A stretch of 64,000 nucleotides of DNA from Carcharhinus amblyrhynchos. Taxonomy: Eukaryota. This document shows, in pieces, positions 3,201 to 62,926 of this stretch (its first letter is position 1; each line of letters starts with the position of its first letter). The stretch is from positions 47,926,001-47,990,000 of the forward strand of contig OZ336874.1 in assembly GCA_965287045.1 (NCBI GenBank). The letters are read 5' to 3'. A model generated the notes under the pieces. That model was not told where the DNA came from. It saw nothing but the letters and a program-made list of their open reading frames with translations, and did no database searches. The translations under genes were made by a program, and so were the position numbers.

Positions 3201-4252
3201 GTAAGGCCTTGAGAAGTTTTATCTTTTTCTACTCCCATTTCTTGCAATGTCTTTGTGAGGTATTACATCGGGGAATGACTTGTTCTCTTCACAGCAATAA
3301 AGGTTCAAGGGCTGATTTTCCTCAATCATTAAAATTGGAATTGAGTGACACATTGGATGGTATCATAAGGATTGATTTCAAAGGGCTAGATTTTCAGTGT
3401 GGAGGTGGGAAGTGGAAATCAACCCACATGCAACGGGGGCGTGGGGAGGGGACAGAAATGGGCCTCGGGTTACTCCGGGACAACAATTCAATTGCCACGG
3501 AAACAAGTTGGCAGCTAAATAATGGCTGCAGGGGTGGCAACACAGGGTGGAGGCCTGTCAGCTGAAATGCAAGTTTGATTTGAACTCATCACGGCAGCCA
3601 TTACTGTGGCTCATGTTTCACTGCTGCAACTGCACAGTGAAGAATCACAGTGTAATCACCACACGCACAAAACCTCATTTTCACAATGTCTCAAGAGAGC
3701 CAGAGGCCTAGAATCCGGGCTATGGCAGCTCCTTGATTTTTAGATGCATATCAACGACCCCTGGAGAATGTGGCAAACCTCATGAAGAGCCATTTGCAGG
3801 ATTCATTATGTAGCCTAGACCAGCCTCTGGCCATGGTGGCGCAGAGATGTTTGGGGAGGGTGCCAGTTTCACCCAGTTGATGGTTCTTTCCAACCATCTG
3901 TACCTTCAACCAAGGGCTGCGGATGTCACCAAGGAACATGATAGTGGCACCCATTGGGAGCATCACCCTCAGGCACCTTGGCTCCTTTGACAATGGAAGC
4001 CTCTGTGCAGCAGGATGAAATGATGGAGACTGTTCACACACATGCTGCAGCCTTTGAGGCGCATAGGCACCTCCATGATGAGGAACACCATCACAAGCAT
4101 CTCAGCTGCAAGCTCAAACCAGTGAGAAGGCTGACTCCACCTCATCTGAGTCCACAAAGGGATGACAGAGTGTGGAGACCACCTTCTTGCATGGCGAATT
4201 GAATGGGTCATTGGAGTATTTTCTGCCTGCAACTTTGCACTATTTTTCTTTC

Positions 4253-4530
4253 TTAGAATCGTAGAATCCTACAGTGCAGAAGGAGGCCATTCGGCCCACT
4301 GAGTCTGCACCAGCCACAGTCCCACCCAGGCCATATCCCCATAACCCCATATGTTTACTCTAGCTCGTTCCCCTGATTCTAAAGGGCAATTTAGCATGGC
4401 CAATCCACCTAACCTGCACATTTTTGAACTGTAGAAGGAAACCCAGGCAGACACAGGGAGAATGTGCAAATTCCACAAAGATGGTGACCCAAGCCGGGAA
4501 TCAAACCCGGGTCCCTGGCGCTGTGAGGTG
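4253..4530 (-). mobile_element. HE1/V-SINE (tRNA-derived)
   Basis: B-box-like gggaatcaaacccggg on the reverse strand, V-domain (gcagacacagggagaatgtgcaaa) and a CR1-like tail. Confidence 0.85.
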
Positions 4531-4687
4531 AGCTATAAGTATCAGTGTAACCAAAAGGTACTGCCAGTGGCCAATGGTGCGTCACCGCCCCCCCCACCTC
4601 CTCTGCTGGAAAACATGCTGAAGTGGGATCGGAAAATCCCGCCCATTATAGTTTGTTGGTTTGCATAATTTAAATTTGGGAGAACCA

Positions 4688-5814: not shown

Positions 5815-6785
5815 CTCATAGAGTTATAGAGGTTTACGGCATGGAAACAGGCCCTTCTGCCCAATTTGTCAATGCCGCCCTTCTTTTTAAACCCCTAAGT
5901 TAGTCCCAATTGCCTGCATTTGGCCCATATCCCTCTATACCCATCATACCCATGTAACTGTATAAATGCTTTTTAAAAACAAAATCGTACCCGCCTCGAC
6001 TACTACCTCTGGCAGCGTGTTCCAGACACTCGTCACGTCTGTGTGAAAAAATGGTCCCACTGGACCCTTTTGTCGCTCTCCCCTCTCACCTTAAACCTAT
6101 GCCCTCTAGTTCTGCACTCCCCTACCTTTGGGAAAAGATATTGACGATCTACCTTGTCTATGCCCTTCATTATTTTATAGACCTCTATAAGATCAGCCCT
6201 CAGCCTCCTAAGGGGCAATTTAGCATGGCCAATCCACCTAACCTGCACATCTTTGGACTGTGGAAGGAAACCCAGGCAGACACAGGGAGAATGTGCAAAT
6301 TCCACAAAGACAGTGACCCAAGCCGGGAATCAAACCCGGGTCCCCGGCGCTGTGAGGTGAGCCATAAATATCAATGTAACCAAAAGGTACTGCCAGTGGT
6401 CAATGATGCGTTACCCCCCACCTCCTCTGCTGGAAAACATGCTGAAATGGGACTGGAAAATCCCGCCCATTATAGTTTGTCGGTTTGCATAATTTAAATT
6501 TGGGAGAACCATAGGAGGATAAGATGTAGGAACAGAAGTAGGCCATTCAGCCCATCGAGTCTGCAGAGGAAAAAGTCGCAGTCTATCCAGCCCCTCCTTG
6601 TAATTCAAACCATCAAGTCCCAGTAGCATCCTAGTAAATATTTTCTCATTTAATAATATCCTTTCTATAATAAGGTGAGCAGAACTGTACATAGTATTCC
6701 AAGTGTGGCCTTACCAATGTCTTGTACAAGTTCAACAAGACATCCCAACTCCTGTATTCAATGTTCTGACCAATGAAACCAAGCA
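5815..6785 (-). mobile_element. CR1 LINE 3' fragment interrupted by a copied segment (6209-6563)
   Basis: Encodes LRADLIEVYKIMKGIDKVDRQYLFPKVGECRTRGHRFKV; colinear with the sibling at 19155-20090 on both sides of the insertion. Confidence 0.85.
6209..6563 (+). repeat. Direct copy of 4381-4740
   Basis: Same order of SINE piece, MITE end, unique spacer and LINE tail, with the same junctions. Confidence 0.9.
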
Positions 6786-11160: not shown

Positions 11161-11509
11161 GCCAGCGATGGTTCCTTCGGGGATTAGCTCCGTATAGACA
11201 GTACGCAACAGCATGAAGCCTGTTTCCAAACTGAGCACATTACTGTTAAATTTAGCATCTTCAGCTTGATACTGTGTACTCTATGTCAAATTATTTATGA
11301 CTGCAAACCATATCAGCCAGTTACTCAGTTATGATCACCTTTTAACGTCTGCCAGACTTGAGATGCTCAATTTCCACAGTTCTGTGGCAGGTCTGTCATG
11401 AGCATAAGATCTTAAAACCTTTTGATATTTTAGCCAAATTGTGGGAAATATTTTCTATTGAGCGGTTCTCACTCTCAATTTTTTTTAAAAATAGGGCCAA
11501 ATAGTTTCA

Positions 11510-11755
11510 AGTTTTTTTAAAAGTTTTATTTATTCATGTCACAAGTAAGCTTACATTAACACTGCAATGAGGTTACTGTGAAAATCCTAGTCGCCACACA
11601 CTCTAGTGTCTGTTTGGATACACTGAGGGAGAATTTAGCATGGCCAATGCACCTAACCAGTATGTACTTTGGCTGTGGGAGGAAACCAGAGCACCCGGGG
11701 AGAACATAAAGACTGCACAGACAGTGACCCAAGCCAGCAATCACTGTGCCACTGT
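11510..11755 (-). mobile_element. V-SINE, alternative-tail subfamily
   Basis: V-domain followed (on -) by a cagtaacctcattgcagtgttaatgtaagcttacttgtgac..aataaa tail. Confidence 0.8.
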
Positions 11756-12364
11756 CAAATATCTATGGTTCTGGATGGGCAGTATTACAGATGGGAGATA
11801 AAGGAGAACATCGATTCATTAATGTTAGGACTGAACTTTTAAACTTACCATATGGTAACTATGCCCTAAAAAGGGGCATGTTCTCCTAGTTCCGCTCCAC
11901 TCCAATGGAATTCCCCAGGGCTATGCTGTATATTTCTATGAAAAGTCAGCAGTGTTAGGTTGGAGGAGTTTTCAACTCCAGAGCAATTGGACAAACACGA
12001 CTGCTGCTCGGAAGATCTGGGAATTTGATTTTCATGCACGACCTGGCTCCAACTATGCCACCCACTACACTGGGACAGTAGGTTGACTAACAGAGTGCAA
12101 AATGGCAACATTTGTTGTTCATTGTTGTTTCACTTCTTGCACCCAATAGTGAAAAAAGCTGACTTTCATCTGCTCCCTTAATGAATGTTAACTGAAACAG
12201 GTCACTGGATTGTCGCCAGAGGCTTATAGCTTGAAGGGGTTGAGGGGCACCACTCTGCATTAAGCATGGCTGACCAGGAGGAAGCTTCCACTCCATTGGC
12301 TTATTGGAAGGATTTTGCAGGTTGATACTCGACATGTTTGGCCGCGTTATGAACACACCTTCCT

Positions 12365-14008: not shown

Positions 14009-14090
14009 CAGAAAAATGCAAATATTAGAATCAAAATTACTGATAAAACCGTTAACTTTTTGAAGAAGTTATATTAATATGCGATTAGAA

Positions 14091-14380
14091 CATGGTGGCA
14101 CAGTGGTTAGCATTGCTGCCTCACAGCACCAAGCACCCCGGTTCAATTCCTGGCTTGGGTCACTGTCTGTGTGGAGTTTGCACATTCTCCCTGTGTCTGC
14201 ATGGGTTTTTTCCAGGTGCTCTGGTTTCCTTCCACAATCTGAAAGACATGCTGGTTAGGTGCATTCACCATGCTAAATTCGGCCTCAGTCGCCAGAATGT
14301 GGCGACTAGCGGATTTTCATAGTAACCTCATTGTAGTGTTAATGTAAGCCTACTTGTGACACTAATAAATTAACTTTAAC
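14091..14380 (+). mobile_element. V-SINE, alternative-tail subfamily
   Basis: A box tggcacagtgg, B box ggttcaattcc, V-domain tgtgtggagtttgcacattctccc, tail gtgacactaataaattaacttt. Confidence 0.88.
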
Positions 14381-16167
14381 TGCCACAAGCCCTTTTGAGG
14401 AGGTGTCTGCAGAGCTAGGATGCCGAAATTATCCGAATGATTAATAGTCATGGAGTAGCACATTACAGCCACCTGTCTGCTGGGTGGTGGAAATATAGTT
14501 CACAATTTGTCTTAGTGCAAATTCACACAGAAAGCTGATGACAAGGCTGGGATACAATACTTTTTTACAGTTCATTTGAAAAATGAGTGACTGAAGAACA
14601 TTGTGGCACAATTGTTTAAAACTTTGAGAGTTGATTTTGAGGGTTTTTGAAAGATTGCAGTGTGCGTGCACATTGTATCGGTACACAGGGAGTCAACACG
14701 GTACATTTTTAAAAAGCACTGAAAACATACACGGGGACAATGGGAGAATTTGACACCAACAAAGGACTGGTATAATTATGATAAAGGTTACAGGTTTGGC
14801 AGAAAGCAATTAAAATAGATGTGGATAAAATAAGTGTTTTCCTCATCGTGGTGGGGCCAGATACTTTTGAGGGTGGTGTCAAATCAACAATGTTGTCAGT
14901 GGTTCCCAGTGCAATGGACTATTCTGAAATTTAGAGATTCTGAACTCATAGTATGGCATGATTAAGAATGAGATTGTACCAAGAGTTACATTCAGTGAAA
15001 GGAAGTAGTTTCCAAATGACCCTGTTGCAGATTATGTTCACAGGTTCATGTTCAGAGGTTCATGTTCCAGGTTGTGGTAAATTGTTAGGTCACAGCCATG
15101 CACCAGGTGAATGTTGTGGTAGAGCTAAATCTGGTTAAGGGATTTTACAGCCTCCTGCTGGGTGTATTTTCAGACAACCCACTCACCAGTGGGTCAATTG
15201 AGGCCTTTAAATGGGATTTAACCAGCGGTCCCATGTCAACCACCCTGCCTGGCAGACTTCCCTCTATGGGCAGGCGATTGGCTGGGGATTATCGCTCCTT
15301 ATTAAGCCCTACTGGGCCAACTGGAGGACACCATCCAGGGTTTAGTCCCTCCCTCAGATTGCCCTACTACCCTTGTTAGTTGGGCCATGCCAGCTTGGCA
15401 CCGTGAGATTCAGCGCAGCACGACTCCTCTCAACGTCACTGCAGTACTATCAGTCACCCCAGTGGTGCTGACCGTAATAAAGAGTTAGCAGCACCACAAA
15501 CCGCACCTCCCCCCAAAAGTACCAATGAATGTAAAAACCTGAAATCATCCTCCAGTTTAATCATGATGACTCACACACGCTATGGATGCTAATCAGATGT
15601 CCCAACACAGTTGGGACCTAGCCAAATTAGATGGCACTTCCATGGCCCCCACAGTCAGATTAGGAGGGAGCAAGTATGAGGTTGCTTCTTCAAACATCAA
15701 ATGGAATTCAATGTTTGGTGGTCTTTTTGGGCAGTCTGCAGCTGTCCCTGTAAGGTTAGGTTAATGTATACACCAATTCCAGTTCAACTTTGCATTACAA
15801 ATTGACAGAAGTAGTTTGGGAATGGACACAGGAACTGTGTTTCAGTTTTGAAATGAGACCTGTGTTAATTTCAGGTGGCCAATGTTTGAATGCCCAATGC
15901 GGATCAGGAATAGAGCTCTGCACTGTTAGATATTGTCCTGTCACATGTAAAGTCCATTAATTAATTGCAACTAATTTAAATTTATTACCTGAAAACATCA
16001 CCTCCTAAACCTGGATTGAAATGTTTGGACAGAAAGGATGAAAGTCTACCTCACTAGCTTTTCTCTTTCTCACCTCCTGCTGCCCTTAAGGTTTCCCTGT
16101 TGTTAGTTCTTTTTAATTTTATAATCATTGCACATTCATGATGCCTCCTGTGCTCCAGTGGCTGATG

Positions 16168-16512
16168 TGTCATAGAATCCCAACAGTACAGAAAGAGGCC
16201 ATTCGGCCTATCGAGCCCACACCACAACAATCCCACCCTGCCCCCATCCCCATAACCCCACATATTTACCCTGCTAATTTCCTTGACAATTGAGCATGTT
16301 GTTGGACATGGCCAATCCACCTAACCGGCACATCTTTGGACTTTGGAGGTAACCAAAGCACCTGGAGGAAACCCACGCAGACACAGGGAGAATGTGCAAA
16401 CTCCACACAGTCACCCAAGGCCAGAATTGAACCCGGGACCCTGGCACTGAGGCAGCAGTGTTAACTACTGCACACGGGCAGTAGCGGCAGCACAGTGCTG
16501 CTGTGCTGCCCC
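16168..16512 (-). mobile_element. HE1/V-SINE, near full length
   Basis: tRNA head, V-domain and CR1-type tail ending gattctatga on the minus strand. Confidence 0.88.
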
Positions 16513-19154: not shown

Positions 19155-20090
19155 ATTAGAGTCATAGAGGTTTGCATGGAAACAGGCCCTACGGCCCAAC
19201 TTGTTCATACTGCCTTTTTTTTTAAAACCTCTAAGCTAATCCCAATTGCCCACGTTTGGCCCATATCCCTCTATACCCATTTTACTCATGTAACTGTGCT
19301 TTTTAAAAGACAAAATTGTACCCGCCTCTACTACTATCTCTGGCAGCTTGTTTCAGACACTCACTACCCTCTATGTGAAAGAATTGCCCCTCTGGGCACT
19401 TTTATATTTCTGCCCTCTTACCCTATGCCCTCCAGTTTTAGACTCCCCTACTTTTGGGAAAAGATATTGACTATCTAGCTGATCTGTATCCCTCATTATT
19501 TTATAGACTTCTATAAGATCACCCCTCAGCTTTCTACACTCCAGAGAAAAGAGTCCCTGTCTATCCAGTCTCTCCATAACTCAAACCATCAAGTCCTGAT
19601 AGCATCCTAGGAAATCTTTTCTGCACTCTCTCTAGTTTAGTAATATCCATTCTATAACAGGGTGACCAGAACTGTACACAGTATTCCAAGTGTGGCCATA
19701 CCAATGTCTTGTACAACTTTAACAGGACATCCCAACTCCTGTACTCAATGTTCTGACCAATGAAACCAAGCATGCGGAACGCCTTCTTCACCACTTTGTC
19801 CACCTGTGATTCCACTTTCAAGGAGTATGAATATGTATCCCTAGATCTCTTTGTTCTGTAACTCTCTGAGGGTTAAAATGGGCGGTGCGGGCTTGTAGGG
19901 CCGAGGGGCCTGTTTCCTGTACTGTGCTGTTCTTTGTTCTCCCCAATGCCCTACCATTAATTGAGTAAGTCCTGCTCTGGTTCAATCTACCAAAATGCTT
20001 CACCTCGCTTTTATCTAAATGAAACTCTATCTGGCATTTGTCAGCCCACTGGCCCAATTGATCAAGATCCTGTTGCAATCAGGTATAACT
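19155..20090 (-). mobile_element. CR1 LINE 3' fragment with a nested short + strand retroelement tail (19868-19940)
   Basis: ORFs 19371..19577, 19561..19821 and 19818..20078 are frameshifted CR1 ORF2 pieces (LYKTLVWPHLEYCVQFWSP). The nested piece ends in ctgttctttgttct. Confidence 0.88.
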
Positions 20091-30955: not shown

Positions 30956-31070
30956 TCTAACCTCCAATCTACAAGAATCTTGCAAAAGTCATATTACCCA
31001 GATAAGCATGCATTAATGTTTGCAGTGATTCATTCAATTGTATCTTCCACGGACTGCTTCAGCAACATAA

Positions 31071-31362
31071 CCGGGGCAACATGGTGGCACAGTGGTTCGC
31101 ACTGCTACTTCACAGTGCCAGGGACCCGGGTTCAATTCCTGGCTTAGATCACTGTCTGTGCGGAGTTTTCCCACCATGTCTGTATGTGTTTCCTCCATGT
31201 GCTCCGGTTTCTTCCCACAGTCCGAAAGACATGCTGACATGCTGGCCATGCTAATTTGTCTCTCATCCAAAAAGGCGCCCGAGTCTGGCGACTAGGAGAT
31301 TTTCACAGTAACTTCATTACAGTGTTAATATAAGCTTACATGTGACACTAATGAATAAATAA
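31071..31362 (+). mobile_element. V-SINE, alternative-tail subfamily
   Basis: A and B boxes, a partial V-domain and the tail gtaacttcattacagtgttaatataagcttacatgtgacactaatgaataaa. Confidence 0.85.
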
Positions 31363-47740: not shown

Positions 47741-48129
47741 TTTAATCCCTACAGTGCCAAAAGAATCCATTCAACTCATCGAGCCTGTCCCACCCAGACC
47801 CTATCCCCGTAACTGCATGTATTTACCCTACTTATCTTTCTGACACTAAGGGCAATTTAGTATGGCCAATCAACGTAACCTGCACATCTTTGGACTCTGG
47901 GAGGAAACTGGAGCACCTGGAGGAAACCTACGCAGACATGGGGAGAATGTGTAACTCCTCACAGACTGTCACCGAGGCCAGAATTGAACCTGGGTTCGTG
48001 GTACTGTGAGGCAGCAATGCTAACCATTGTGCCATCGTGCCACCCAAGTCTACCCTCTGGTGTGGTGGAAATTTTGAAGCACTTATTTCATATTTAATTT
48101 CATTCCCTTTATCTTTTTCAAGCCTCTTG
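47741..48129 (-). mobile_element. HE1/V-SINE plus ~85 bp of copied 5' flank, bounded by a 16-bp TSD
   Basis: atatttgtttgctcta at 47725-47740 and 48130-48145; the insert matches 53332-53727. Confidence 0.9.
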
Positions 48130-49984: not shown

Positions 49985-50340
49985 ATGATGGCCTAGTGGT
50001 ATTATCATGAGGCTATTAATCTGAAAACTAAGCTAAAGTTCTGGGGATCCGGGTTTGAATCCCACCATGGCAAATGGTGGAATTTGAATTCAACAAAAAA
50101 TATCTTGAATTAAGATGAAACATTGTTGACTGTTGGAAAAACCCATCTGGTTTCACTTAGGGAAAGAAATCTGCTGTCGTTACCTGATCTGGCCTACATG
50201 TGACTTCAGAACCACAGCAATATGGTTGAATCTCAGATGCCCTCTGAAATGACCCAATAAGCTACACAGTTCAAGGGTAACTTGGGATAGGCAATAAATG
50301 CTGGCCAGCTAGCAACACCCATGTCCTACAAATAAATAAG
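49985..50340 (+). mobile_element. tRNA-derived SINE family 2 (LINE-B-like tail)
   Basis: A box tggcctagtgg, B box gggtttgaatccc, tail ggcaataaatgctggcc shared with LINE family B. Confidence 0.85.
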
Positions 50341-50934: not shown

Positions 50935-51114
50935 ATAGAATAGACTCTACAATACAGAAAGAGGCCATTCGGTCCATTGAACCTTCACGGACAACAATCC
51001 CAGTCAAGCTCTATCTCCATAATGCCACATATTTACCCGCTAATCCCTCTAACCTATGCATCCCAGGACACTAAGGGCAATCTAGCATAGCCAATGCACC
51101 TAGCCCTTTGGACT
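50935..51114 (-). mobile_element. HE1/V-SINE 3' fragment
   Basis: Same tail as the copy at 893-1066. Confidence 0.8.
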
Positions 51115-51129
51115 AACAAATATAAATAC

Positions 51130-51920
51130 AAATATATAAGATACTGAAGGGAATAGATAGAGTTAATAGTGAGAGACTGCTCCCTAGACTGGGTACGAAC
51201 ACAAGAGGTCATCATTTAAGGGTGAGGGGGGGAGGTATAATTTGGAGGTGAGAAGAAGGTTCTTTACGCAGAGAGTTGTGGGGGTCTGGAACGCGCTACC
51301 GAGTAGGGTGGTGGAGGCAGGAACGTTGGACTCGTTTAAGATGCAGTTAGATAGGCACATGAGTGAAACGAGAATGGAGGGATATGGTAGGGGCTATTAA
51401 ATAGGGTTAAACCTCGGGAGACACCGGAAGGGCAGGCTGTAAGATTAATATTTTTGTCTTTATTCCACAGGTGGAGGTCCACCTCGTGTCAAACGAGGGG
51501 CATGCACACGGCGGGTCATGTGTGGGCTGCTCTTGGAAGTCCAGGAGTGGCCTAGTACTTCATGTCGGTGTGTGTGCTTGATCCTGGACCGGTAGACGGG
51601 CGCCGCAACAGCTCAGTGACTAGCACTGCTGGCTGTGCAGACACATGGATTTGGGCCTGTGTCTGTGGGAGTTTGCGCATTCTCCCTGTGGTTGCGTGGG
51701 TTTCCTCCGGGCGCTCCGGTTTCCTCCCACACCCCAAAGATGTGCTCTTAGGCTAATCGGTTTTTACCAAATTGACACTATTTCTTCCCTGAATCTGACT
51801 GAGTAGGGTTCCATTCGTAGACATGCAGGGTAGAATAGGTGTAGGGTGATGCGGCGGCGCGGGCTCGTTGGGCCGAAGGGCCTGTTTCCCGTGCTGGGTT
51901 GTTCTTTGTTTTGTTCTTTG
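51130..51920 (+). mobile_element. Composite retroelement: CR1 ORF2 end + structured 3' UTR + V-SINE body + (gttcttt)n tail
   Basis: TSD taaatac at 51123-51129 and 51921-51927. ORF2 C-terminus IYKILKGIDRVNSERLLP..NTRGHHLRV..RRRFFTQRVVGVWNALP..GY* has a single frameshift in a G homopolymer. V-domain at about 51660-51770. Confidence 0.85.
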
Positions 51921-53321
51921 TAAATACCTCTTCCTAACACATTTCTTCTGCCTAAAATTTCAATTATTTTTATGTAATGGGACAAAATCCTATGATGAGG
52001 GACCAGATTTGGGGCATAAATCAGGTAAACCAGAGTTACATCAGTTTTAAAGTACACAGTTTATTCTGGTAAAATTAGTTGCAGCCAGAAGATGCACCCA
52101 AATGAAAATGGCACATGTATGATAATAAACAGGACAATATGGATTAAAGGGGCTCCCTAGGAATTCTAGCATAAATGCCAAATTAATCTTCAATTAAGTT
52201 TACCTTGTAAAGTAATGCAGTAGGTTACGTAAACACCTTGGCAACACAACAATTGATTGAGTTCACAGGCTTAGAATCCACAGAGGCTTTGGATGGAAAA
52301 TCCTTCAGCACTGACTCTGCCAATGTAACGTCACAGAGCAGGAAATGAGAATATCATGATAATCAAAGAAGAAAATGGCCAACCAATCATTCTGTCAGTA
52401 TCTACACGTGACCACAGTGCATCAGTGGCTGAGAATTCCATTGACATCAAAGTTTATGCCGGTTTCTACGTCAACTGGCCAATGAAAACTTACGTTCAGT
52501 TAAAAAGTATGGCAAAGACAAATAGGAAAGCTGAGTCCAGGACACCAGAAATTGGAGAGAAGCGAATGTCATATCTTTTGCCTTCAGTCTCAGAGCATCT
52601 TGTCTCGACTGCTCCCTTCAGCATTGTGGAGTGTGCCTTTGGAAAGACTATTTCAGCTACTTAGTCTTTATGAATGCATGGCAAACAAGCCAAAGAACTT
52701 AGGGCACACTGAGTCTAATATGCATACAGAGGTGGTTCTCCAGGGCCATTAGTCCCAGCCGGAACTCCCACTGGCCTGTTGAATCAGGCATGTGTGCCAA
52801 ATCAGGATTCTCGCCAGGCGTCATCCCATGAGTCTCCTGCCCTGCTGTGCCTGACTTGATCAGGTTCTCACCCAGAGTGGGCAAGAACCTGATGATTACT
52901 AACAAATGCATTTGACTGCAATTGTCAGGCTGGAAGCCCGATTCAACGGCCTCCTGGATTGCCCCCTCCTCCGCCTGCCCATCCCAGGTGGGAGATCATG
53001 CAAGTTCAGGTCTTGACGAACAGGAATCAGGCACCATGGTCACTGAGAGGGAGCAAGGAGGTGATTACCCACTCAAGACTCACCTCCAGGGTGCTGAAGA
53101 GTGGCTTCATGGCAGGTGCGGGTCGTGGGGAGGGTGGCTCAGGTTGGTGGTTTTTCCAAGGATGGGTTTTGTGTGGCACGCTGTCACTCTTTAGCTATTA
53201 AAATGACTAAATTCTCTTTCAGCATGTCAAGTTGTAGTTAAAAGTCTTCCATCTATAGCCTTGAAGCCCTTTGATGTGTCCCCTAGTATGTTAAGTTCAA
53301 AGGTCTGTCAGATGAATCAGA

Positions 53322-53646
53322 ATCATCATAGAATCCCTACAGTGCCAAAAGAGGCTATTCAACCCATTGAGCCTGCACTTCAACAATTCCACCTCGACCT
53401 TATCCCTGTAACTGCATGTATTTACCCTTCTTATCTCCCTGACACTAAGGGGCAATTTAGCATGGCCAATCAACCTAACCCCGCACATCTTTGGGCTGTG
53501 GGAAGAAACTGGAGCACCCGGAGGAAACCCACACAGACATGGGGAGAATGTGCAACTCCACATAGACAGTTCCCGAGGCTGGAATTGAACCCGGATTCAT
53601 GGCGTTGTGAGGCAGCAATGCTAACCATTGTGCCATCATGCCACCC
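53322..53646 (-). mobile_element. HE1/V-SINE, full length (probable donor of 47741-48129)
   Basis: tRNA head, V-domain and an intact gattctatgatgattc tail. Confidence 0.88.
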
Positions 53647-61262: not shown

Positions 61263-61684
61263 AAGCAGTCACTCCGGACCACCCTAATTCCTTACACCTG
61301 GCTTCTCACAGTGGCTGGGACCTTTCAATTTTCCCTAATGTCATAAAAGGATGCATGACTTCGCTTCCCTTGACTCTGCCACCCTTCACCGGAAGGACTG
61401 CAGAGCTGCTGCATTGCACATTTCTCACCAGGCCTGGGATGAAACACTGGCCAAGAAACATACAGTTCCTGACTTCAGTAAATGAAGAGGAATACAGTGG
61501 CAATCCGACTGTTATTGCCACCCCACTCGAGTTCTGGACCATCTTAATATAAAGATAGAGTTGACTTCCAAAGGCCAATAGTATTTACCTTCTACCCAGA
61601 TAATAAGAAAAGCAGAACCACATCGTAAGAAAGAAATCAATGGCAGTTACATTGAATGGTTACACATCTTTCAAGTCCAGTTGT

Positions 61685-61928
61685 TTTAGGCAGGATTCTG
61701 ACTTTGAGGCATTCAGTCATAATCCCACAGATGGTAGCTTTGCACCTTTGGCTCCTCAGCCAAGCACATAGACCAAATGTCTGAACCTGCAGTTCCTCTC
61801 GTACTGAGCAGGAGTACTGTTACAGCAACACTTTGTAATCGTCAGTAGGGTAAAACTAATCTGTCTTACGACGGTCTAAGCCAACTCACCTCCCTATTAG
61901 TGGGTGAACAATCCAACACTTGGTAAAT
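61685..61928 (-). pseudogene. 28S rRNA 3'-region fragment (dispersed pseudogene)
   Basis: Reverse complement reads ccaagtgttggattgttcacccactaataggga..gttttaccctactga..cctgctcagtacgagaggaac..ggttcagacatttgg..gctaccatctgtgggattatgactgaa..gtcagaatcc. Includes the sarcin-ricin loop at 61792-61805; carries indels and CpG decay. Confidence 0.93.
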
Positions 61929-62926
61929 AACTGCGCATTATTCCTGCGAGTGATTCTTTACAAATGTCTGTTTGCAGATCTGCACAGATTCGCGAGTCAT
62001 CCCTATACAGTATTATGATAATCCAAAGCTCTGTTTGAATGACTTGTCCATGTTCAGCAAACTTTGTATTCCCAGTGGTATTTTGCGCACATTCATGATT
62101 GCTTACTCAATCTAACATATATTCTTCCAAATATACAGTTTCAACAAAATTGCAGTTTATGTACAAGTTAAAAGTACAAAATCCAACTGTTCCGTGCTTG
62201 CGAAGAATTTGTATGTGAAAACTAATGCTTTAAAGCTTCTTCATGAGTAGATGCAAATATGTGTGGATTACTATCAGTTACTTGCATTCTCTTTTCAGTT
62301 TGGATAACTCTATTCGAACAGGAATTAGTCTGATTGTTAAACTTTAATGTGGAAACTCCCTAACAAATGGCCCCATTTCCCAAAAGACATATCAGTATTG
62401 GAAATAAAATGGTGGTATTATATTGTCAGTGGCTACAATCCCAACATTAGTTTGCAACTTCTGGAGAGGAACAAGAAAAGAAAGTGTTTGGCACCGTATA
62501 ATGTTCTGCTGACCAAAGCACAGAGATCTGCAGTTTCTGAGGATGCAATAAATTGGCATGTCAAATTTTATAGGGAAAGATAAATTAAGACAAGATACCT
62601 ATGGCTAGAACTGACTGAAGTTTCATCTCGAGTAGTTAAGCTGTATGATTTAGTGTCAACTCCGTTTAGGAATGTAGACAACGTAATTCACCTGTGGATA
62701 TAAATGAACGCAGATTTCAGCAGAAACAGCTGTCACAAAGTCCTGACATTTGCTCGATGATTTATCACTTTCCTCTGATCGCTGTGTCGTGTGTTTTCAG
62801 AGTTTTAGTTTCCTTTAGGGATTTTTTAGGAACAGATGAGTTGAGTGCTGTGTCAACATCTGTAGCAGTGTTGGATAGGGTGTGATGTTATTGTAAATTA
62901 TATCCTTATGTTGATGTGCATTACAG

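Follow-up and report, generated by a model that had tools for sequence, protein, structure and literature searches.

CR1 LINEs of Carcharhinus amblyrhynchos carrying a promoter-less V-SINE head and V domain inside their 3′ UTR

Autonomous LINEs are said to propagate captured repeats: BovB lineages reportedly end in incorporated SINE or CR1 pieces (Walsh et al. 2013), in that respect resembling the elements described here, and we know of no evidence that a SINE core is preferentially conserved in those terminal pieces. Among the LINEs nearest to our locus, canonical CR1 elements of cartilaginous fishes (HER1 type), in the available parts of their descriptions (PMC13343379, PMC3747384), share with ours an ORF2 with endonuclease and reverse transcriptase, a microsatellite tail without poly(A), 5′ truncation and, in some copies, a repeated 5′ unit; their esterase-like ORF1 may have a counterpart here. 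Unlike these, the elements reported below have a 3′ UTR of 517–700 nt with a folded domain, a SINE head and a V domain, HER1 being compared here by description rather than by sequence. The V-SINEs (HE1 of sharks and rays, with HER1 as partner, names taken from a table in the accessible part of PMC3747384) have a head remnant, V and following body in the same order as our elements, but the piece described here has neither Pol III box, is part of a protein-coding autonomous element and terminates in the tail of the LINE, not that of free SINEs. Two further LINEs, Ingi-3_AC and R4-1_ADi, contain part of the Ceph domain in their 5′ UTR and, as described in the sections of PMC5786205 at hand, may likewise have gained a SINE body segment by recombination; there, however, the piece is RTE-derived, 5′ and confined to single families, whereas here it comprises head plus V, is 3′, runs through a whole clade and is preferentially conserved. 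In the same sections, a Repbase-wide comparison is said to have found nothing resembling conserved SINE bodies. The persistence of SINE central domains over hundreds of millions of years is presented as an open question in the available text of PMC4824008, and three models for it appear in that of PMC5499810.

We analyzed a window of 64,000 nucleotides (contig OZ336874.1, assembly GCA_965287045.1, positions 47,926,001 to 47,990,000; coordinates below count from its first letter). The unit at 51130–51920 (+) is a 791-bp, 5′-truncated copy of a young CR1 family, here family A. As originally predicted, it is bracketed by a 7-bp target-site duplication, TAAATAC, at 51123–51129 and 51921–51927, and opens with the C-terminus of a CR1 ORF2 (51130–51400), which ends in the stop TAA at 51398–51400 and has one frameshift near 51226–51232, judged by comparing the window copy with an open-ORF copy (L038). 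The proximal UTR (51401–51470) is family specific and leads to a pyrimidine run and CAG/G that resemble a splice acceptor. The UTR had been described as unassigned; it is not featureless, since 51476–51590 form a conserved folded domain, predicted as a three-way junction with a long stem. The SINE-derived part begins at 51598, where the prediction had placed it, and comprises a tRNA-like head remnant (51598–51659) with a degenerate A box and with an 18-nt gap after 51647, relative to free SINEs and family B, that removes the B box, the V domain (51660–51730; 64/70 columns identical to free SINEs), which contains a Vhc-type hairpin (51696–51730), and the SINE body 3′ of V (51731–51774, about 70% like free SINEs), likeness to free SINEs reaching about 51774. 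A spacer (51775–51853), poorly conserved between families, precedes the predicted CR1-type GTTCTTT-repeat ending, a 3′ stem-loop and (GTTCTTT)n tail at 51854–51920 that copies, family alignment, folding and a sister family (D, below) mark as the LINE's own. Rfam and ARAGORN gave no match inside the 791-bp unit. The observed/expected CpG ratio is 0.56–1.13 in ORF, UTR, SINE and tail, compared with 0.28 over the whole window, so the claim that all parts are CpG-rich holds for these but fails for the spacer (0.29 at 51771–51845). The copy is young, but the proposal that its parts are similarly young in origin is not supported: the capture is older than families that are identical at only 50–57% of their fourfold sites.

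A genome search with the UTR (51400–51600) returned 2130 candidates, and all 40 that were scored are 98–100% identical. Thirty loci were fetched, a set that includes the window itself and three copies of one duplicated insertion; 28 of them retain 763 or more of the 791 bases and the other two are 5′-truncated within the unit. Both junctions, ORF2 to UTR and UTR to SINE, recur in these dispersed copies with different flanks, which marks a true family and bears out the prediction that the CR1 and the promoter-less V-SINE moved as one unit. Family A copies have variable 5′ ends, differing flanks and (GTTCTTT)n tails, and their 3′ stem-loop, microsatellite tail and variable 5′ truncation are hallmarks of CR1. 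The full-length element is about 4.62 kb (3/10 extended copies are full length), and L038 has an ORF1 of 311 aa and an ORF2 of 962 aa, both open from stop to stop. Its ORF2 matches PF03372, PF14529 and PF00078 above cut-off (AP endonuclease and reverse transcriptase), while its ORF1 has a weak esterase-type match (Lipase_GDSL_2, E 7.9e-6, 26.9 bits, under the 32.9 cut-off) and an OSK domain just above cut-off. With such open-ORF copies in hand, the claim that an autonomous LINE lineage carries the SINE stands. The 5′ UTR (L038:5470–5810 (−)) contains internal motifs that we take to be TATA-like and ETS-like, and 4/30 loci (L075, L085, L090, L094) carry a tandem duplication of its first 175 nt.

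Fifty-one family A copies lie on average 0.87% from the family majority, a lower bound in copies picked as best matches. Clear target-site duplications are a minority: in a survey of 52 family A ends with imperfect tail trimming, 7-nt matches occur at 2 ends (about 0.4% in shuffled pairs) and matches of at least 6 nt at 6 (about 3% in shuffles), and 24 ends have no match of 4 nt or more. None of 30 loci fetched with another query, which began 8 nt upstream of the SINE head and favoured longer copies, starts at the head. Among 60 loci chosen by the upstream UTR alone, V is complete in 59, and the genome contains 20,639 exact matches to a 20-letter motif that marks the embedded head specifically (reversed control, 0). 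The window unit is a 5′-truncated copy of an autonomous CR1 family that carries a promoter-less V-SINE head and V in its 3′ UTR.

Other families have the same layout. The related GTTCTTT tail that had been noticed at 19868–19940 is real and belongs to an older family, B, as a tail-only copy at 19866–19940 (+); the 11 family B copies lie 5.5% from their majority, and the long ones show the same order of UTR parts. Family C was found in a flank, and its search yielded 2823 candidates, the best 40 at 99–100%; both frames are open in 1/16 extended copies (L218), and A and C share 737/962 ORF2 residues. Further variants were seen as single copies (L178, L040, L187/L188). In an ORF2 tree of this genome's elements (37 rows thinned by similarity from 153 distinct ends, midpoint root), the SINE carriers form one clade (FastTree 0.982), nested among short-UTR CR1 families of the same genome, with family D as sister (support 0.967; 0.909 on a smaller set). 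Where the carriers have 517–700 nt of 3′ UTR, family D has only about 75 nt between its stop and the same GTTCTTT tail, which places the insert after the stop and ahead of the LINE's own tail. Because the carriers form one clade whose short-UTR sister has the same tail, the arrangement points to a single old insertion ahead of that tail: as far as the tree reaches, an ancestral LINE likely received the SINE front half just once. The prediction that the SINE had become the LINE's 3′ end is therefore contradicted by family D's tail, and also by the embedded tail itself, which matches the free-SINE tail at only 37–39 of about 60 columns and was absent from all 24 B-box-bearing free SINEs sampled without selection. 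Two ORF2 trees disagree on how A, B and C branch and, given this instability, the state of the B-box region in family B may be either kept or regained.

Neither the A box nor the B box consensus occurs in the UTRs of families A, B and C, while free SINEs have both; the missing B box had been predicted correctly. Since it fails this promoter-box test, the embedded segment is, judging from its sequence, V-SINE-derived yet not a SINE. The carriers' V is identical to that of this genome's free SINEs at 62–66/70 columns. In a tree of 56 V regions, 16 embedded and 3 chimeric copies nevertheless group at 0.996 apart from 37 free ones, and three diagnostic characters within V are present in 55–58/61 embedded copies and 0/37 free copies (a fourth, biased by the search, was set aside). 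By these characters, simple recopying from free SINEs does not account for the embedded V. Exchange has left traces too. A search for an intact B box ahead of a LINE-type V start gave 18 matches, 15 of which look like ordinary free SINEs. One chimera (L180, G000 C7) joins an intact SINE head to LINE-type V, spacer and tail, and reads as a SINE re-formed from the LINE's 3′ UTR. L187 and L188 (G000 C31) have an additional intact SINE head, A and B boxes included, inside a duplicated V start of the LINE UTR, and this subfamily may have regained a Pol III promoter. L090 has an internal deletion that ends at V. The breakpoints of L180, L187/L188 and L090 identify V as a real template-switch point.

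Conservation of the UTR between families is patchy (identities are between family majority sequences, in the order A/B, A/C, B/C). Fourfold sites at the end of ORF2 are identical at 11/22, 27/52 and 16/28 positions (50–57%), and over the whole ORF2 at 158/282 between A and C, where 30% is expected by chance. The UTR before the acceptor-like motif is not alignable, the folded domain is identical at 105/132, 100/129 and 114/137 positions, V at 65/70, 67/70 and 66/70 (93–96%), the spacer at 41/75, 32/57 and 52/79 (55–66%, with large gaps) and the tail at 54/59, 60/61 and 55/59. Thus V is more conserved even than the adjoining folded domain (Fisher p 0.0005–0.03) and as conserved as the LINE tail, the part recognised by the enzyme in stringent LINEs according to the available text of PMC3747384. 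The head region hit by the deletion is as alike between A and C (27/28) as V itself, and high and low conservation alternate within 450 nt of UTR.

A, B and C share one predicted fold of head plus V. In it, three hairpins are enclosed by a stem formed between mid-V and the head's 5′ strand, and a separate hairpin comes after them. Ten of 44 pairs are changed on both sides among 11 copies, a count reached in 1/500 shuffles; such counts come from few related sequences, and the structure was derived from the same sequences, which inflates the controls. Letters that mark the embedded V are partly compensated in the head: in the modelled fold, one pair is G-C in free SINEs but A-U in the LINE, and it is the bulged base that varies. 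V alone, in the window copy, folds no better than shuffles (z −0.55). The separate hairpin matches the Vhc SINE of Strombus at 28/32 letters by eye. A Vhc-type hairpin is absent from the two free-SINE folds we made, and the Vhc stem-loop appears not to be preserved in fish V-SINEs in the available part of PMC4758252.

The folded domain scores z −4.9, −1.9 and −4.0 against shuffles in A, B and C, and its sense strand is 15–30 kcal/mol more stable than the antisense. In 15 natural copies 97.7% of cells are paired, changes occurring mostly via G-U, and only 1/40 pairs is changed on both sides. It belongs to no Rfam family, and its only miRNA match is at chance level (E 7.3). A superficial likeness to HDV-like ribozymes was dropped: a crude descriptor of this class gave 0 matches in A and C and 1 in B.

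What keeps the insert alike among diverged families is probably selection on the LINE itself, for a cis-acting RNA module with which the LINE transcript would more readily survive or be loaded with its reverse transcriptase. Counting against it are the single doubly changed pair in the folded domain, the failure of V alone to outscore shuffles and the equal likeness of V and the deletion-bearing head region between A and C. We give about even chances to the more specific proposal that the LINE clade has domesticated its parasite's V, losing the Pol III promoter while a tRNA-like head-V fold was retained as a cis element. Exchange of 3′ modules among LINE families at V could mimic conservation, which weighs against selection for an RNA module and leads to the doubtful, though still appreciable, possibility that the SINE piece is a useless passenger whose V stays alike as a template-switch hotspot shared among LINEs and free SINEs. 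A hotspot is one of the three models in the available text of PMC5499810, chimeras with breakpoints at V do exist (L180, L187, L188, and the deletion in L090), and the unstable order of A, B and C would fit as well; yet the embedded V forms a clade of its own with internal diagnostic letters absent from the 37 free copies, conservation rises and falls within 450 nt, and compensatory changes tie the 5′ strand of the head to mid-V. That V instead arose in a CR1 3′ UTR, from which SINEs took it, is very improbable. LINE UTRs have supplied the middle of other SINEs, and conserved bodies have been proposed to be LINE-derived (PMC5786205, in the part available), but the carriers branch within a set of short-UTR CR1 families from one genome, V is accompanied by a decayed tRNA-like head in SINE order, and V-type domains range from cnidarians to fish in the accessible text of PMC4824008 and PMC4758252. 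Coincidental nesting of insertions at the window locus only is refuted by the recurrence of the same junctions in dispersed copies with different flanks, and retains essentially no probability.

It is also improbable, if less so than a LINE origin of V, that retention of the module serves splicing or the host, its structured part being spliced as an exon or a short mobile RNA. A, B and C all retain the pyrimidine run and CAG/G despite unalignable sequence upstream, and a donor-like motif is present in the family A 5′ UTR (L038). Against this, 0/30 5′-UTR loci are joined to the acceptor-like motif as spliced retrocopies would be, and no donor-to-acceptor joint is present among the joints listed in four contig sets, 12 further joints lying outside those displayed. 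Six short copies starting at the acceptor-like site share no upstream exon, and conservation at the level of families would mirror selection on master elements rather than on host copies. A candidate splice from the 5′-UTR donor-like motif to the UTR acceptor-like motif gave 7 pattern matches without a shared upstream exon and was rejected. Four copies of a subfamily, A′, start exactly at the acceptor-like site (L166, L167, L169 and L172; G000 C2, C4, C8 and C16) and share 4 extra 5′ letters complementary to the adjacent hairpin; they likely arose by fold-back at a reverse-transcription stall. Such acceptor-start matches number only 5 genome-wide, one of them explained by its target duplication.

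Under the favoured reading, a cis-acting module retained by selection on the LINE, capture would have occurred by template switching between LINE and SINE RNAs or through integration into a master copy. Selection against an internal promoter may then have favoured the disappearance of the Pol III boxes, because an intact promoter would yield a SINE with the LINE's exact tail, competing for the enzyme. Cis recognition of the tail and 5′ truncation are established for CR1-type LINEs. In the proposed cycle, full-length LINE RNA would be made from the 5′ UTR, the ORF2 protein would bind the terminal stem-loop in cis and prime on the GTTCTTT repeats, and early stops of reverse transcription would leave 5′-truncated copies. 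The RNA upstream of the tail would consist of the three-way domain, a four-way junction formed through pairing between the head's 5′ strand and mid-V, and the separate Vhc hairpin.

Parts of the unit also occur in sequencing sets from elsewhere: 20 of the 24 runs listed contain some of it, from organisms coded A–F (codes unrelated to the family letters), with shares of 0.39–0.80. One contig from organism B spans the ORF2 stop into the UTR and one from organism E spans the folded domain and head; the RNA type of these contigs is a guess, and they do not show transcription. Contig depth was not used to rank parts of the unit, and a soil metatranscriptome run with a share of 0.13 was not counted as evidence.

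We found no description of this LINE layout in the literature, judged mostly by titles and the openings of abstracts, with Repbase and Dfam outside the comparison. The available text of PMC13343379 does not mention such a UTR; its supplement lists 114 CarCar_CR1 rows, which seem cut to about the first 400 letters, gave 0 matches to a control tail motif and leave the 3′ UTRs outside view. The carrier LINE would make the unexplained V segment testable. With V in an enzyme-encoding element, open-ORF copies in two diverged families and a V-less sister as a natural control, the system allows the LINE-interaction, recombination-hotspot and host-benefit models to be tested in one construct. If the RNA-module reading is right, conserved SINE cores would be kept for the retroposon's own RNA life cycle and not for the host, and the carriers would be the first self-mobilising system for dissecting a conserved SINE core. 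Annotation is affected too, since a LINE call and a separate SINE call would be made for each of more than 20,000 such UTRs.

The window contains further elements of related kinds. A decayed 3′ half of a free V-SINE lies just upstream of the insertion, outside its target-site duplication (50940–51115 (−)). Free V-SINEs have two tail types: one is shared by the elements at 14090–14370 (+), 31070–31360 (+) and 11500–11760 (−), the second by those at 53300–53645 (−), 16150–16480 (−) and 47750–48050 (−), one type being CR1-type and the other different. At 5850–6360 (−) the head and body of a free V-SINE run directly into a CR1 ORF2 C-terminus and tail, and a similar SINE at about 4250–4640 (−) has the same 5′ flank, which suggests, from the sequence of the two, a local duplication. 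A tRNA-headed element at 49985–50340 (+) has a start that resembles CarCar_Zenon-1 by eye, and 61448–62045 (−) is a fragment of eukaryotic large-subunit rRNA (Rfam E 1.8e-34).
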